DNA of 14,201 nucleotides from the NCBI GenBank assembly GCA_041497675.1, contig JBGQGY010000098.1:1-14201 (forward strand), read 5' to 3'. This document shows positions 7,339 to 14,201 of this stretch, piece after piece. Both the position numbers and the translations under genes were made by a program. Positions within the stretch are counted from its first letter, which is position 1. Each line of letters opens with the position of its first letter. The notes beneath the pieces were generated by a model that was not told the origin of the DNA, ran no database searches, and was given only the letters and a program-made list of their open reading frames with translations. Origin of the DNA: a bacterium. GTDB lineage: Bacteria > Sysuimicrobiota > Sysuimicrobiia > Sysuimicrobiales > Humicultoraceae.

Positions 7339-7903
7339 ATCCGCTGCGGCGCAGCCGTACCCGCAGGCGCACGGTGACCGGGTCCTCGGCCGCAAAGATC
7401 AGAAAGCGCGGGATGGGAATCCCGTACTCGCTCAGCTTGACGACGACTTCGCCGGAGGCGCGGTACTCATCGGCGAGCGCAGTGACCTCAAGCGGCAGCT
7501 CGATCTCGCGTGCGGCGTCGCGAATCGTCAACTGCCCCTTCATCAGCACCCGCATCATGGTCGCCATCGCTCGGTCGCGGTTGATCATGGTCCCCTTGAA
7601 GGTAATGAAGGGAAACTGTTCGGTCCGCAGGAAGTCGCGCCGCATCTGTGCGTCTCGCATGCCGTTGCCGGTGATCAGCGTGCGGGCGTCGATGCGGCCG
7701 TCGACGGTCGCGCTAAACGTCTCGCCTTCTCCCCTGACGGTCACGGTGCCCTCGACACGATCCGTGCTGCCCGTGAATCCTCCGCGGTTGTCGCGCATGA
7801 CGAACTCGACCCGACTCTCACCCGGTTCGATGCGAAACGTCCCTATCGGCAACAGGGACGGCGCCTGCACCAGGACGACCGCCGCGGCGAGCCATCGTAG
7901 CAT
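7337..7903 (-). CDS. YceI family (polyisoprenoid/lipid-binding) secreted protein
   Basis: Signal-peptide-like MLRWLAAAVVLVQA, then SRVEF, TGNGMRDAQMR, QFPFITF and GQLTIRD. SD GAGGGG lies 8 nt before ATG 7903. Confidence 0.88.
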   Translation of the reverse strand: MLRWLAAAVVLVQAPSLLPIGTFRIEPGESRVEFVMRDNRGGFTGSTDRVEGTVTVRGEGETFSATVDGRIDARTLITGNGMRDAQMRRDFLRTEQFPFITFKGTMINRDRAMATMMRVLMKGQLTIRDAAREIELPLEVTALADEYRASGEVVVKLSEYGIPIPRFLIFAAEDPVTVRLRVRLRRSG

Positions 7904-7940
7904 TACACGCACCCCTCTCGACGAGACGATTCATCCCCTG

Positions 7941-7949
7941 TGGTACCAT
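7941..7949 (+). promoter_or_regulatory. Extended -10 element (TGgTACCAT) for a leaderless transcript of the 7957 gene
   Basis: TG-N-TACCAT followed by 7 nt and then the GTG start. No SD. Confidence 0.55.
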
Positions 7950-7956
7950 AAGCACC

Positions 7957-8841
7957 GTGAACGCGCTCAACGTGCGCCTGCTGGCGAGCCGGCTGGCCGA
8001 GGGCGGGGTTCGCGACGCGCTCGGCCGCTATCTGCTTGTCGCGTGCGTGGCGGGCTTTGTGGTCTCGCTCGCGGTGCTGCGCATGCTGGGGTACGGCCTC
8101 GACCGCTGGGTGTTCATCCTCATCGTGTGGGCCGTGCTCATTTTTATCCCGCTGCGCATCGTGGTTGAGGCGTTGCGGCCGTTCGGCGCGCGCATGCGCC
8201 GACGGGTGGCCGACAGCCTGGGCGGCGACCCGCGGCGTTTCGAGCGGCCCGAACTGCTGCCCATCGTCGTCGGCGACATTGCCGCCCGCGAGGTCACCAT
8301 GCCGCGGTTCACCAAGCCGGAGCATTCGCTGAAGGCCCGCGAGGCCGCCGTCGCCATCCTGCGTCACACGATGACCGGGCCAGACGCCGCGGCCAAGCTC
8401 CGCGCCGCGATCCGCGCCGCCCTTGCGGCCGCCGCGACCGAAGCCGTGACGGTGAGCGCGTCGGCAACGGGAGTGGCCGCCGATCACATCCAGGCACGCT
8501 GGGAGGGTGCGCGCGCGCTCGGCGGGCTCGCCGCGCTTGTGGCGGTGCTGTCGGCATCGTATCGAGATCGCTGGGGGGCGATACCCGACCTGCCCGAACT
8601 GGACGGCCGTCCGCTGCGCGACTATCTGGACGCGGCGTTCGACTATTGTGACGAAGCGGCGCTGCAGGTCGACGCCCTGCCCTGGACCGAGCCACCGCTT
8701 GGGTCGTCGCTCGATCCGCATGCGATCGATGAGGTGCGCGCCGCGTGGAGAGCGTTCCTGGCTGCGGGCACGCCGTCGCCGCGCGCGCTTGACGCGATGG
8801 TGAACGTGGTCGTGACGCCGAGCGCACGGCCCGGCGCTTAG
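7957..8841 (+). CDS. Hypothetical protein with two N-terminal transmembrane helices and an Ala-rich helical domain
   Basis: 294-aa ORF with high-GC third positions that fills the gap between yceI and the selenoprotein gene. Two hydrophobic segments (YLLVACVAGFVVSLAVL and WVFILIVWAVLIFIPL). No family recognised. Confidence 0.75.
   Translation: MNALNVRLLASRLAEGGVRDALGRYLLVACVAGFVVSLAVLRMLGYGLDRWVFILIVWAVLIFIPLRIVVEALRPFGARMRRRVADSLGGDPRRFERPELLPIVVGDIAAREVTMPRFTKPEHSLKAREAAVAILRHTMTGPDAAAKLRAAIRAALAAAATEAVTVSASATGVAADHIQARWEGARALGGLAALVAVLSASYRDRWGAIPDLPELDGRPLRDYLDAAFDYCDEAALQVDALPWTEPPLGSSLDPHAIDEVRAAWRAFLAAGTPSPRALDAMVNVVVTPSARPGA
8815..8837 (-). promoter_or_regulatory. Putative bacterial SECIS element for the second UGA (codon 74)
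   Basis: UGA CACAUCUAA GCGCCGGGC-CGUGC-GCUCGGCGU forms a 9-bp stem (two G-U pairs) with a 5-nt loop and G at loop position 2. There are 18 nt between the UGA and the loop. Confidence 0.75.
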
Positions 8842-9068
8842 ATGTGTCAGCCGCGCTCGCCTTCGAACCCCACTTCAACGCGGCCGTCCGTGTGCACGAA
8901 CACCGGTACCGTGTTCTGACCGCTCATCGTGATGACGCGCTGGATCAGCGCCTCATCATCGTCGACCGCGATTTCTTCGAAGTCCACGTTGCGCGTGACG
9001 AGGACACGCCTCGCCTGGACGCAGGTCGGTCAATCGCTGAGCGAGTACATCACGAGCCGGCGGTTCAT
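8838..9068 (-). CDS. Glutaredoxin-like selenoprotein with two Sec residues (UxxC plus C-terminal U-x-x-stop), 76 aa
   Basis: Translation: MNRRLVMYSLSD-U-PTCVQARRVLVTRNVDFEEIAVDDDEALIQRVITMSGQNTVPVFVHTDGRVEVGFEGERG-U-HI*. TGA codons at 9032-9030 and 8849-8847, TAA at 8840-8838. Has the Grx cis-Pro TVP and GF motifs, an ATGA overlap with the upstream gene, and a hairpin after each TGA. Confidence 0.9.
8992..9023 (-). promoter_or_regulatory. Putative bacterial SECIS element for the first UGA (codon 13)
   Basis: UGA CCGACC UGCGU-CCA-GGCGAGG-CGUGU-CCUCGUC-ACGCG forms a 5-bp lower stem, a 3-nt bulge, a 7-bp upper stem and a 5-nt loop with G at position 2. There are 21 nt between the UGA and the loop. 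Confidence 0.78.
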
Positions 9069-10249
9069 GCCTCACCTCCCAGGAGTCTCAACGCTGCGCC
9101 GCCCAGCACCCTGGCGGCGATGGGCAGCGCGCTTTCGTCAAAGTCGAACTGCGCCGTGTGGTGCCGGCCGTCGAGCCCCCGCTCGCGGTTCGCCGACCCA
9201 ACCAGGAAGTAGCAGCCCGGCGCCCGTTCGAGAAAGTACGCGATGTCATCGGAGCCGGTCGTGGGCTCCATCTCAACCACGCGCGCGGCACCGACGGCTT
9301 CGATCGCGACCCGTCGGACGAGATCGGTCACCGCCGGATCGTTGCGCACCGGCGGGCAGCCAAACTGGCTGCTCACCGTGCCGCGGCATCTCAGGGCGGC
9401 CGCGGTGCCGGTGGTGATCTCCTCGATGCGCCGCATCGTGTGCTCGCGGACCTCTTTTGTAAAGGTGCGGACGGTGCCGTGCATCTCCACCCGGTCGGGG
9501 ATAATATTGAAGGCCGTGCCCCCGGCAATGGTGCCGATCGTCACGACTGCGGCGTCCAGCGGCGCGGTCTCGCGGCTGACGATCGTCTGCAGCGCGGTGA
9601 CCACGTGGGCCGCCGCGACGATTGGGTCCGCCGTCTGGTGGGGGATCCCCCCGTGGCCGCCCTTCCCTTCAATCGCAATCCCGATCCGGTCCATGGCGGC
9701 GAAGATGGGCCCGGCGCGCAGCGCCACGATGCCCGCGGGCAGGTCGTTCCAGAGGTGCAGCCCGACGACCGCGTCGACCTTCGGGCTGTCCATCACCCCC
9801 GCCTCGATCATCGGCAGCGCGCCCGAGGTGATCTCCTCCGCCGGCTGAAAGGCAAACACCACTGAACCCGGCAGCTCGCGCCGGAACCCGGCCAGGACTT
9901 CCGCCAGGATCACGGCGACGGCGGTGTGCCCGTCGTGCCCGCAGGCGTGCATGACACCGGGCTTCTGGCTCCGATAGGGCCGGTTTTCGGCTTCCAGGAT
10001 GGGCAGGGCGTCAATATCGGCCCGCACCATCACGGTGCGGCCGGTCTTCTCCCCCTTCAGCACGCCGACCACCCCGGTCCGGGCGACGCCGGTGCGCACC
10101 TCGAGCCCGGCGTGCTTCAGCCGCTCGGACACGATCCCCGAGGTCCGGGTTTCCTGAAATCCCAGTTCCGGGTGCGCGTGCAGATCCCGGCGCAGGTCCA
10201 CCAGGTCCCGCTGCCGGCCCTCAATCAATCCGAACATCTGTTCGATCAT
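9065..10249 (-). CDS. M20 family amidohydrolase (aminoacylase-1/hippurate hydrolase-like)
   Basis: RRDLHAHPELGFQE, RADIDALP, MHACGHDGH, FQPAEE, GKGGHG and GSDDIAYF. SD AGGAGG upstream. Confidence 0.94.
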   Translation of the reverse strand: MIEQMFGLIEGRQRDLVDLRRDLHAHPELGFQETRTSGIVSERLKHAGLEVRTGVARTGVVGVLKGEKTGRTVMVRADIDALPILEAENRPYRSQKPGVMHACGHDGHTAVAVILAEVLAGFRRELPGSVVFAFQPAEEITSGALPMIEAGVMDSPKVDAVVGLHLWNDLPAGIVALRAGPIFAAMDRIGIAIEGKGGHGGIPHQTADPIVAAAHVVTALQTIVSRETAPLDAAVVTIGTIAGGTAFNIIPDRVEMHGTVRTFTKEVREHTMRRIEEITTGTAAALRCRGTVSSQFGCPPVRNDPAVTDLVRRVAIEAVGAARVVEMEPTTGSDDIAYFLERAPGCYFLVGSANRERGLDGRHHTAQFDFDESALPIAARVLGGAALRLLGGEA

Positions 10250-10375: not shown

Positions 10376-11356
10376 ATGGCTTTGTGGCTGCGTGAAGCCG
10401 AAGTAGGCGCGCTGTTGTCCATGGACGATGTGATGGCGGCCGTGGAGCAGGGCTTTCGTTTTCTCGGTGACGGCAGCGCCACGAATCACCCGCGAACCCG
10501 GTCGATCACGTCGGGCGGCGCGCTGAACGTCATGCACGCCGCGGTGCCGTCACTGGGTGTGATGGGTGTGAAGACGTATGCGACGACACCGAAGGGCGCG
10601 CGCTTCCTGGCGATTCTCTACAGCCTGCAGAACGGGGAGGCGCTGGCGATCGTCGAGGCCGACACACTCGGACAGATTCGCACCGGCGCGGCGAGCGGCG
10701 TGGCGACGAAGTATCTGGCGCGCGCGAATGCCGGCACGATGGGCGTCATCGGCGCCGGCTGGCAGGCCCGCAGCCAGGTACAGGCGGTGGCGCGCGCACG
10801 TCCGGTCGCGCTGGTCAAGGTCTTTAGCCGGTCCGAAGAGCGTCGCGAAGCCTTTGCCGCCGAGATGGTGGAGGACCTCGGCACGGAGGTCGTGGCGGTC
10901 GACAACCCGCGCGACGCCGTCAGCGATGTCGACATTGCCATTACGATCACGTCCGCCCGCGAGCCGGTGCTTCACGGCGAGTGGCTGCGCCCCGGGACCC
11001 ATATCAACGCGGCCGGATCGAATGCGGCGTCCCGCCAGGAGATCGATGGCGAGGCCGTGCGCCGCAGCCAGGTCATCGCGGTCGACGCGCTCGACCAGGC
11101 AAAGATCGAGTGCGGCGACCTGATCGCGCCCGCCCGCGCCGGCGAGCCGGTGTGGGAACGAGTGGTAGAACTCGGTGCCATCGTGGCCGGCAAGACCCCC
11201 GGCCGGACCCGGGACGACCAGATCACGCTGTTCGAATCACAGGGCATCGCCCTCGAAGACGTCGTGACTATGGAGCTGCTCTACCGGCGAGCACGGGCGT
11301 CCGGCGCCGGGCAGGAGATCGCGCTTTCGCGCGAGGCCGTACCCATCCCCCGGTAG
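10376..11356 (+). CDS. Ornithine cyclodeaminase / mu-crystallin family protein
   Basis: MALWLREAEVGALL..., LGQIRTGAASGVATKYLA, GVIGAGWQA, GTHINAAGSN and ITLFESQGIALED. Start ATG 10376 with a GGAG SD. The track ORF from 9926 overlaps the amidohydrolase. Confidence 0.92.
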   Translation: MALWLREAEVGALLSMDDVMAAVEQGFRFLGDGSATNHPRTRSITSGGALNVMHAAVPSLGVMGVKTYATTPKGARFLAILYSLQNGEALAIVEADTLGQIRTGAASGVATKYLARANAGTMGVIGAGWQARSQVQAVARARPVALVKVFSRSEERREAFAAEMVEDLGTEVVAVDNPRDAVSDVDIAITITSAREPVLHGEWLRPGTHINAAGSNAASRQEIDGEAVRRSQVIAVDALDQAKIECGDLIAPARAGEPVWERVVELGAIVAGKTPGRTRDDQITLFESQGIALEDVVTMELLYRRARASGAGQEIALSREAVPIPR

Positions 11357-13032: not shown

Positions 13033-13653
13033 ATGGAGGACATGCCCGTGTCGGTAGTACGTCACGAACCCAGGAAAGCGCCAACCGGCGCCGAGCTGCT
13101 TTCGGAGGTGCTGGGCCGCGGCGTGGCCGCATTGAGCCGCACGCTGGCCGGGATGCCCCGCGCCGACCTCCGGCGGCTGCTGCGCGCTCGTGATGAAGAG
13201 CGCGTCCTGGTTGCGGCGGTGCTCCACCCCGAGATACTCGAACGCGTCACCGGGGCCACGCCCCTGCTGGCCGCGCAGATTCGCGCCGTCGAGGCCAAGC
13301 GCCGGCTGCTCGAATCTGATGGCGGAACCGTGTCTGGGGAAGAGGCCGGGCGCCTGCTTGGGATCTCCCGACAGGCCGTCGATAAGAAGCGCCGCGGGGG
13401 CCACTTGCTCGCGCTGCCCGTCGGCGCGCGGCAGCGTTATCCGGTCTGGCAGTTCAAGGACGGCGCCATCCTGCCCGGCCTGACGGGTGTGCTGGCGGCG
13501 TTTGCAGCTGCAAGCCCCTGGCTCAAAGCGGCATTTTTCGTGAGCCGGAATGCACGTCTAGGTGAGAAGAGACCGCTTGACCTGCTGCGGCAAGGCCGCA
13601 TCGATGACGTGATGCGCGCCGCCCACACCTACGGCGAGCATGGCGCGGCCTAG
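13033..13653 (+). CDS. Antitoxin (Xre-like HTH plus MbcA/ParS-type toxin-binding C-terminus)
   Basis: HTH-like VSGEEAGRLLGISRQAVDKKRRGGHLLAL, YPVWQF and NARLGEKRPLDLL. Overlaps the downstream RES gene by 14 nt. An alternative start is GTG 13048, 8 nt after GGAGG. Confidence 0.8.
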   Translation: MEDMPVSVVRHEPRKAPTGAELLSEVLGRGVAALSRTLAGMPRADLRRLLRARDEERVLVAAVLHPEILERVTGATPLLAAQIRAVEAKRRLLESDGGTVSGEEAGRLLGISRQAVDKKRRGGHLLALPVGARQRYPVWQFKDGAILPGLTGVLAAFAAASPWLKAAFFVSRNARLGEKRPLDLLRQGRIDDVMRAAHTYGEHGAA

Positions 13654-14201
13654 ACCGGAACCTCATTCCGGTCCTCCCGCAGACTTATCCTCGCGATCGC
13701 TCCCGCTCAAAGAATCCAGTGGGCCGTGGACACGCATTCACGCGCGCAACCGCCAGGCGCTCTTCTTCGGCCGGACCGGCGACAATCGCTTCGACGCGCC
13801 GGACGGAAGTTATGGAGTCCTCCACGCCGCGGAGGATGCGCTCGGCGCGTTCGTCGAGACCTTCGGTGATCCGCTCGATATCCGGCTGGTCAGCCGCGCC
13901 GACCTGGCCAAACGTTGCCTTGCGAGGATTACCTCCACACGCCGTCTCCGCCTGGTCGACCTGACTGCGAAAGGTCTCCGGCAGATCGGCGCAGACGCGC
14001 GGCTCACGTCGGGGGATCGGACGCTGGCGCAACGATGGGCTCTTGCGCTGTGGCACCATCCATCAAAGCCGGACGGCATTGCCTACCGGGCGCGCCACGA
14101 TCCTTCGAAGGAAGCCGTCGCGATCTTTGATCGGGCGAAGACCGTTGTGAAGTCGCAGCCGATGGGACGGCTCACCGACGACCCTGCAGCGCTGGCAAAG
14201 A
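13640..14201 (+). CDS. RES domain toxin (RES family NAD+ phosphorylase-like), truncated by the window edge
   Basis: Not in the track because it has no stop in the window. Translation: MARPRPEPHSGPP...WTRIH...FFGRTGDNRFDAPDGSYGVLHAAEDALGAFVETF...LRLVDL...AQRWALALWHHPSKPDGIAYRARHDPSKEAVAIFDRA. Confidence 0.87.
   Translation, partial: MARPRPEPHSGPPADLSSRSLPLKESSGPWTRIHARNRQALFFGRTGDNRFDAPDGSYGVLHAAEDALGAFVETFGDPLDIRLVSRADLAKRCLARITSTRRLRLVDLTAKGLRQIGADARLTSGDRTLAQRWALALWHHPSKPDGIAYRARHDPSKEAVAIFDRAKTVVKSQPMGRLTDDPAALAK

Follow-up and report, generated by a model that had tools for sequence, protein, structure and literature searches.

In the 14,201-nucleotide bacterial contig JBGQGY010000098.1 (assembly GCA_041497675.1; this whole stretch is called the window below), positions 8838-9068 of the minus strand appear to hold a functional, unannotated gene for a small glutaredoxin-like selenoprotein. 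Both of its in-frame UGA codons, 13 and 74, would be decoded as selenocysteine (Sec, U) via SelB and tRNA-Sec. Judged from sequence, the gene combines a glutaredoxin (Grx) fold, one hairpin for each UGA and a LexA-type box, and it is not callable by standard open reading frame (ORF) logic. We put the probability of this reading at roughly 0.88. An earlier note on this DNA had described a minus-strand frame running from an ATGA overlap to a TAA and broken only by two TGA codons, and every part of that description is visible in the DNA.

The frame and its coordinates

The following elements define the gene.

8838..9068, minus strand: Grx-like selenoprotein gene (candidate), 76 codons and TAA, with Sec13 and Sec74; based on the frame, PF00462, the homologues and an AlphaFold2 model
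9066-9068, minus strand: start ATG, in ATGA overlap with the stop of the M20 gene
9075..9079, minus strand: Shine-Dalgarno sequence GGAGG, 6 nt 5' of the ATG and within the 3' end of the M20 gene
9030-9032, minus strand: UGA codon 13, the opening residue of the U-P-T-C redox motif; TGA in 8/8 Armatimonadota genes and TGC or TGT in 11/11 other homologues
8847-8849, minus strand: UGA codon 74, predicted Sec in the G-U-H-I-stop tail; TGA in 19/19 homologues and Cys in 17/150 representatives
8838-8840, minus strand: stop TAA, read from the sequence

With TGA read as U, the interval forms a single frame whose protein runs MNRRLVMYSLSD-U-PTCVQ...QNTVPVFVHTDGRVEVGFEGERG-U-HI-stop, and codons 13 and 74 are its only in-frame TGA codons. 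The ATG shares bases with the TGA stop (9065-9067) of the preceding M20 amidohydrolase gene, the two forming ATGA, and GGAGG-type sites also precede the starts of the gene in its relatives. The TVP and GF fold motifs that had been proposed for this protein are both found in the translated frame. When Cys was written for U, the 76-residue protein matched the Pfam family Glutaredoxin (PF00462) with an E value of 7e-14. This match, together with the retention of both TGA codons in 8/8 close homologues at 72-81% identity, places the frame beyond chance.

Among indexed sequencing runs, 18 from sediment metagenomes hold near-identical DNA (at least half of the sampled words), and two possible RNA runs share only 0.22 and 0.10 of the sampled words with this DNA.

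Both UGA codons are conserved at fixed positions

The conservation of the two codons was examined in 61 related genomes, including that of the window itself, with a homologue threshold of E <= 0.001. Eight of the 61 genomes carried a homologue, and all eight were close copies with two in-frame TGA codons at identical positions, the Armatimonadota copies being 72-81% identical to the window protein. One of these genomes, G038, additionally encodes a distant Cys paralogue. A contig scan with one genome per species gave 18 loci, seven of which belonged to the Armatimonadota genomes already found, so that 19 sequences (18 loci and the window) could be compared. The remaining 11 loci came from Chloroflexota, Dehalococcoidia, Bacillota and bacterium HR23, and codon 13 was TGC or TGT in all 11. 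Counts throughout include genome G019, and no conclusion rests on that genome alone.

Position 13 is therefore TGA in eight of the 19 homologues and Cys in 11, in agreement with the proposal that the first TGA stands where the first Cys of the CxxC motif belongs. Codon 74 was TGA in 19/19 genomic homologues from at least three phyla. It was followed by two or three sense codons and then by a variable stop, which was TGA in nine, TAG in eight and TAA in one of the 18 loci, and TAA in the window. The tail after codon 74 had two residues in 9/19 sequences and three in 10/19. Tails were kept within clades (HI, HL, HVG and YL; SIL; EF and MF; DIG, EIG and HIG), and in the SIL and xIG clades, both with Cys13, the tail codons differed synonymously only, for example as AGCATCCTC, AGCATTCTC and AGCATCCTT, and as GGA, GGC and GGG.

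When 1.84 billion cluster representatives were searched with a profile, 52 matched at E <= 1e-10, and the best 150 representatives were classified. Among these, 23 stopped at Gly73, 17 had Cys74 in the form GC-x-x(-x)-stop (P0057 being placed in this class by eye) and 110 were ordinary Grx-like proteins. Neither Trp nor Gly was seen at position 13 or 74 among the homologues and representatives compared. The question of whether both positions align to Cys or TGA was thus answered positively, with 11 Cys and eight TGA at position 13, and TGA in 19/19 homologues and Cys in 17/150 representatives at position 74. A non-Cys residue such as Trp at either position, named beforehand as evidence against the idea, did not appear in the homologues compared. 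On these alignments, both positions are read as Sec/Cys pairs. Because of these Cys pairs, the absence of Trp and Gly from the sequences compared and the use of TGA as a true stop in the M20 gene next door, a recoded genetic code was excluded.

Selection on the protein was compared on the two sides of UGA13 among the eight Armatimonadota genes. The ratio of nonsynonymous to synonymous differences (pN/pS) was 0.24 for codons 4-12 and 0.31 for codons 14-73; the N-terminal stretch is therefore under equal protein-level selection, which rules out both a start after UGA13 and a pseudogene. The tail is less informative within this group. Since its two codons showed no synonymous differences in Armatimonadota, the argument for tail translation rests on the other clades, the fixed spacing of two to three codons and the Cys homologues.

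Selenocysteine machinery and SECIS-like hairpins

The genome of the window (98.6% complete) was searched for the machinery of Sec insertion, which had been named as a check on the proposal. It contains selA (536.6 bits), selB (361.5 bits), selD (393.6 bits) and tRNA-Sec (62.8 bits), each above its cut-off. The selA and selB genes are adjacent on contig C24, and the tRNA-Sec gene is nearby. Across the related genomes, selA scored above its cut-off in 50/61, including 7/8 carriers of the Grx-like gene. As a separate observation, the selD gene (G000:C39:15011-15934, locus L012) contains one in-frame TGA, and SelD of this genome is, to judge by that codon, probably itself a selenoprotein.

Two hairpins resembling the bacterial selenocysteine insertion sequence (SECIS) were found downstream of the UGA codons.

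8997..9015, minus strand: SECIS-like hairpin 1, inside the coding region, with a 7-bp stem GGCGAGG/CCUCGUC and the loop CGUGU
8815..8837, minus strand: SECIS-like hairpin 2, in the 3' untranslated region, with a 9-bp stem directly after the TAA and the loop CGUGC

In 8/8 U13 genes, the stem of hairpin 1 begins 14-15 nt and its loop 21 nt after UGA13, and one pair of the stem is compensatory (UA in five genes and CG in three). Within codons 18-24, which hold this hairpin, same-residue codon pairs differed in 7/128 cases, compared with 518/1377 elsewhere, making this the lowest seven-codon window in the gene. Such low synonymous variation indicates selection on the RNA itself. A second stretch of low synonymous variation lies at positions 8920-8946 (codons 43-51), where seven-codon windows gave 0.09-0.15 against about 0.38 overall in the eight Armatimonadota genes; no structure or overlapping feature was identified for these codons. 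As a discriminator of U13 from Cys13 forms, hairpin 1 was only partly successful: the Cys forms have heterogeneous hairpins at offsets of 2-25 or none, and four of them (L042-L045) share one.

The loop of hairpin 2 begins 18 nt after UGA74 in the window. Equivalents with stems of 5-10 bp were present in 19/19 sequences, with the loop 18-22 nt after UGA74 despite differing stem sequences, and two compensatory pairs were found among the eight Armatimonadota sequences. No T-run of the terminator type accompanies this hairpin. The UGA-to-loop distances of both hairpins fit the spacing range of bacterial SECIS elements. A stem-loop was thus found shortly 3' of each UGA, with the caveats on folding energy and Rfam matching that are weighed below.

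Predicted fold

An AlphaFold2 model was built from the 19-sequence alignment and had a mean predicted local distance difference test score (pLDDT) of 92.5 and a predicted template modeling score (pTM) of 0.81. In this model the chain runs beta(5-9)-alpha(14-25)-beta(30-34)-alpha(39-49)-beta(56-58)-beta(64-66), a short ordered tail comes next, and the third, last helix of glutaredoxins is absent. The model predicts that the Grx-like protein is a minimal Grx fold, beta-alpha-beta-alpha-beta-beta without the third helix. The best matches found by Foldseek in the PDB were small glutaredoxins, namely A. fulgidus Grx (3ic4), methanoredoxin (5cax), clostridial cGrx1 (7c10) and the NrdH-like BC3987. 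After strand 4 comes the conserved tail DGRVEVGFEGExG-U-x-x; residues E65 and E71 are invariant and E69 is nearly so.

Classical glutaredoxins have a CPYC-type motif, TVP and a GG motif, and then a C-terminal helix that completes the glutathione site. The window protein departs from this pattern of a glutathione-dependent glutaredoxin: TVP is present, but the redox motif is UPTC, GF stands in place of GG and a third helix is not predicted. Consistent with this, it scored 44.7 bits against a cut-off of 90 on TIGR02181 (GRX_bact) and 54.9 bits against a cut-off of 88.55 on TIGR02196 (GlrX_YruB).

A LexA-type box and the gene neighborhood

The neighborhood of the gene was examined in the window and in 14 scanned loci. 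The features on which the following description depends are listed below.

9065..10249, minus strand: M20/M25/M40 amidohydrolase gene (TIGR01891, 368 bits), upstream of the Grx-like gene and coupled to it through ATGA
10231..10244, no strand assigned: perfect palindrome CGAACATCTGTTCG of the LexA/Cheo-box type, over M20 codons 2-6 at the 5' end of the operon
7957..8841, plus strand: convergent 294-aa ORF, whose last codons overlap the Grx-like stop and hairpin 2
L048:2702-3328, L049:3251-3874 and L050:3234-3857, same strand as the Grx-like gene: Thioredoxin_9 genes

The palindrome was found in 7/8 Armatimonadota loci, the exception being L037. It occupies the equivalent place in the other three loci that have the M20 gene, and in three loci that lack M20 it precedes the Grx-like start by 13-25 nt. 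No LexA-type box was found near the Grx-like gene in the 11 Cys13 loci. In the genome of the window, the pattern CGAACANNTGTTCG has two perfect sites, the box of the M20-Grx operon and one near a radical-SAM gene. When one mismatch was allowed, 25 sites were found, compared with four for the reversed control pattern. Boxes with one mismatch stand before both lexA copies and before recA, and a perfect CGAACNNNNGTTCG box, one mismatch from the 12-base CGAACANNTGTTCG, stands before an imuA/imuB-like pair. One published account gives the Gram-positive LexA consensus as CGAACRNRYGTTYC (PMC2248561), and the box motif of the window matches it. The box is also found before a DEAD/HRQ1-type helicase gene, and sites were located at C24:15189, C33:17102, C38:4818, C56:20200 and C30:2704 of the same genome (G000). 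From the distribution of these sites, the CGAACANNTGTTCG box defines a putative SOS regulon that would comprise recA, both lexA copies, the imuA/imuB-like pair, the helicase, the radical-SAM gene and the M20-Grx operon. The M20-Grx operon is probably under SOS (LexA) control.

The M20 gene precedes the Grx-like gene in 4/8 Armatimonadota loci, and in three others the Grx-like gene directly faces divergent OCD/M17 genes. Among all neighborhoods scanned, the neighbors were M20, OCD, M17, YceI, an ABC transporter, Metallophos_3 and Thioredoxin_9, and no single partner was conserved across clades in the 14 loci. In one Dehalococcoidia clade with Cys13 and Sec74, a same-strand Thioredoxin_9 gene (PF14595, 207-208 aa) begins about 15-48 nt after the Grx-like gene in 3/4 loci, and its product is a possible redox partner of the Grx-like protein in that clade. 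In another Cys13 clade, a Metallophos_3 gene lies downstream in three scanned loci (L041, L042 and L044).

On the other side of the gene, the convergent ORF at 7957-8841 has counterparts in all seven Armatimonadota relatives, 31% identical in G038 and 55-71% identical in the other six, and a YceI gene comes after it. The ORF matched no Pfam or NCBIfam family and gave only sub-threshold matches in the ESM Atlas. Two minus-strand ORFs at 7903-8721 and 8309-8878 were rejected as antisense shadows, the plus-strand ORF at 7957-8841 being better conserved. At the far end of the window, an ORF at 13640-14200 on the plus strand carries a RES domain (PF08808, E = 1.3e-13) and runs off the end; it is preceded and overlapped by a 206-aa ORF at 13033-13653 on the same strand, which has no family match. 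By their arrangement and the domain match, the pair at 13033-14200 looks like a RES toxin with an upstream partner.

Proposed mechanism

In the mechanism that we propose, both UGA codons would be read as Sec by SelB and tRNA-Sec, each being served by its own downstream stem-loop, with hairpin 1 in the coding region serving UGA13 and hairpin 2 in the 3' untranslated region serving UGA74. The Grx-like gene would be cotranscribed and translationally coupled with M20, and would probably be repressed by LexA. In the protein, U13, placed where helix 1 begins, would be the exposed nucleophile, with C16 as the resolving residue.

In glutaredoxins, the active site is lined by the segment after strand 4, with the GG/helix-3 element. 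The window protein has an invariant stretch after its strand 4 that would take the place of this element and bring U74 within reach of U13 and C16. Sec74 could then exchange a diselenide or selenenylsulfide with U13 or C16 and serve as a mobile third redox residue toward the substrate. We infer from this a three-chalcogen redox relay, which would be formally like the Gly-Cys-Sec-Gly arm of thioredoxin reductase by analogy. The alignments also suggest that the tail Sec is the essential residue, because position 13 may be either Sec or Cys, whereas Sec74 does not vary.

Taken together, the gene may represent an uncurated Uxx-star branch with the signature [U/C]-P-x-C ... D-G-R-V-E-V-G-F-E-G-E-x-G-U-x-x(-x)-stop, whose Armatimonadota form would be a three-chalcogen relay and a LexA-repressed, DNA-damage-induced reductase of the SOS regulon. 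We offer this fuller picture tentatively, and the odds are against its holding in every part. If it is true, a reductase of the SOS regulon would deliver electrons to repair or to nucleotide supply once DNA has been damaged. The LexA-type operator in 7/8 Armatimonadota loci would provide a first testable physiological context, the DNA-damage response, for a protein of this kind. Furthermore, the Armatimonadota form has both UxxC and the tail Sec, and the Chloroflexota and Bacillota forms have Cys13 and always Sec74, which gives a biochemical handle on a family of unknown function.

Alternative explanations

Several observations weigh against the two-Sec gene and its proposed regulation. The folding energies of both hairpin regions are close to those of dinucleotide shuffles (z = -0.17 and +0.11) in this GC-rich sequence; folding energy alone is uninformative here because the DNA is GC-rich. 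An Rfam scan of positions 8700-9150 at E <= 10 gave chance-level matches only, and the SECIS models were unmatched. Hairpin 1 overlaps the conserved residues RRVL, and some Cys13 forms (L042-L045) share a hairpin near the same site, at offset 16. Hairpin 2 shares sequence with the final codons of the convergent ORF at 7957-8841 and could also be a terminator. In Armatimonadota, the two tail codons had 0 synonymous and 24 nonsynonymous differences over 28 pairs, a count from few sites. The selA gene was not found in carrier G038, whose genome is 72% complete, and the window protein missed every curated Uxx-star cut-off. The box lies inside the M20 coding start in four loci and in a divergent intergenic region shared with OCD/M17 in three, so that the M20-Grx operon is only a candidate target of LexA; in the window, the box may act on the divergent OCD operon instead, which starts 133 nt away at 10377. 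Finally, the relay is a mechanism reached by inference only.

Part of this evidence would suit an explanation in which only UGA13 is Sec, TGA74 is an ordinary stop, the protein ends at Gly73 and hairpin 2 is a terminator between convergent genes. GC-rich genomes often use TGA as a stop, as the neighboring M20 gene does, every gene caller ends the protein at this codon, the hairpin lies between convergent genes with a folding energy no better than shuffles, and the tail codons of the eight Armatimonadota genes lack synonymous variation. Against this, all 19 homologues, drawn from at least three phyla, have TGA at codon 74, whereas the stop that always follows two to three codons later is TGA, TAG or TAA depending on the sequence. 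Within a clade the tail residues are kept, in the SIL and xIG clades the tail codons differ synonymously only, and 17/150 representatives end in Cys-x-x(-x)-stop. Hairpin 2 keeps a fixed distance to the UGA (loop at 18-22 nt) and has no T-run, and the Uxx_star profile aligns through the tail (residues 6-75 to 2-69 of 70). We consider an ordinary stop at codon 74 very unlikely. Less likely still, and close to negligible, is a decaying glutaredoxin pseudogene or a sense reading of TGA (Trp or Gly) in this organism. Two in-frame stops in a short ORF without a gene call would be expected from either, but both TGA codons stand at identical positions in eight genomes at 72-81% identity, pN/pS is about 0.3 on both sides of UGA13, and the aligned residues are Cys and never Trp or Gly. 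In addition, TGA ends the adjacent M20 gene and is the final stop in 9/18 homologues, and the Sec machinery is complete.

The main functional rival accepts both Sec residues but makes them ligands of soft metals or metalloids (Hg, As, Cu and others) rather than parts of a disulfide/diselenide relay. The three clustered chalcogens would fit a metal site, as would the acidic residues E65 and E71, both invariant, and E69, nearly so. However, no metal-resistance genes were found in the window or in the 14 scanned neighborhoods, the Thioredoxin_9 gene directly downstream in 3/4 loci of one Dehalococcoidia clade points to redox chemistry, and the LexA-type box suits stress or redox repair better than metal handling. 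We regard metal binding as unlikely, and prefer the redox function of the two-Sec protein.

Annotation in public databases

The earlier note had expected standard gene callers to miss this gene, and the database relatives bear this out. In all 40 gene-called relatives the called protein stops precisely at G73, one codon ahead of codon 74. Eleven of them (71-73 aa) start at the true N terminus and have CPxC; the other 29 are fragments of 39-57 residues that start after codon 13 and so lose the active-site N terminus as well. Three of the 40, from Armatimonadota, are named 'glutaredoxin family protein' or 'glutaredoxin'. The branch is thus systematically misannotated in public data, and a model built on an alignment of the branch would recover members that are missed by the curated cut-offs.

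Comparison with known systems

The window protein was compared with the curated families of the Uxx-star kind, a name that the earlier note had given and that proved to be the NCBIfam name of the best match. This match, NF041212 ("Uxx-star family glutaredoxin-like (seleno)protein"), scored 56.6 bits where the cut-off is 66, with an alignment that spans the tail (protein residues 6-75 to profile positions 2-69 of 70). The other families scored lower.

UXX-star family 1: 36.3 bits, cut-off 72
UXX-star family 2 (NF041211): 38.3 bits, cut-off 100
UXX-star family 3 (NF047338): 38 bits, cut-off 97
HUGP/GUXX-star fusion (NF045501): 45.7 bits, cut-off 325

NF041212 was the best family for 19/19 clade members, and 0/19 reached 66 bits (best E value, 3.7e-16). 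Among the nearest Cys-tail representatives scanned, some scored 35.8-63.4 bits on this model and seven had no match at E <= 1e-8. Its cut-off was passed only by P0082 and P0161, which are more distant, and P0161 passed family 2 as well. One representative, P0048 (269 aa), is a fusion in which 195 N-terminal residues precede a C-terminal domain made up of this Grx-like module, ending in ...GFEGEPG-C-H-F-stop, with 63.4 bits on NF041212. Members of the branch occur in Armatimonadota, Chloroflexota/Dehalococcoidia and Bacillota, and they score below the cut-off of every curated model. Since its scores fell short of the curated thresholds, the gene was not assigned to any curated family; on its alignments, it is best described as a sister branch of the Uxx-star kind, outside every curated family.

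The literature search found no description of this branch, of an SOS-controlled selenoprotein or of an SOS-controlled glutaredoxin-like protein of this kind, Haft & Tolstoy 2025 being outside the search; nothing relevant was found on Armatimonadota selenoproteins or LexA-regulated glutaredoxins. Selenoprotein glutaredoxins with UxxC are reportedly known from clostridia through the work of Kim et al. in 2011 (cited in PMC13188914). The window protein shares UxxC in a Grx fold (PF00462) with the clostridial protein, and Cys-form structures of the latter (7c10 and 4tr0) are at Foldseek ranks 4-8. In contrast, the clostridial protein has only one Sec, keeps the C-terminal helix that is usual for the fold and binds glutathione, whereas the window protein lacks helix 3 and has a second Sec in its tail. 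Animal thioredoxin reductase has a C-terminal Gly-Cys-Sec-Gly arm, and the Sec of this arm probably passes electrons from an internal dithiol on to substrates. The likeness, offered as an analogy only, is a Sec in the penultimate region, after Gly, on a C-terminal extension; the reductase is a eukaryotic flavoenzyme of unrelated fold and size, and homology is not claimed.

Closer to the window protein, the members of NF041212 likewise have about 70 residues and a Grx fold, and only two further residues separate their C-terminal Sec (or Cys) from the stop; the differences are the score below the cut-off and the three-residue tails HVG, SIL and xIG of some clade members. Families 2 and 3 and the HUGP/GUXX-star fusion, which gave weak matches, share Gly-Sec-x-x-stop after strand 4 of a Grx-like domain, but the window protein stands alone without a HUGP domain. 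Two-Sec Uxx-star glutaredoxin-like proteins are already cataloged in a review, which lists the motif UxxT and two Sec for UXX-star family 1 and the motif GxGU and one Sec for family 2, and which describes the function of UXX-star proteins as unknown, with Sec residues that may bind metals or unknown substrates (PMC13188914). By the table of that review, family 2 differs from the window protein in having one Sec rather than two (PMC13188914). Family 1 is alike in being small and Grx-like, with two Sec, one in an N-terminal redox motif and one in a U-x-x-stop tail; it differs in having UxxT where the window protein has U-P-T-C with a resolving Cys, and the tail signature G-F-E-G-E-x-G-U is also different. 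Relative to these systems, the new elements are the uncurated branch, the combination of UxxC with a tail Sec and the LexA-type box.

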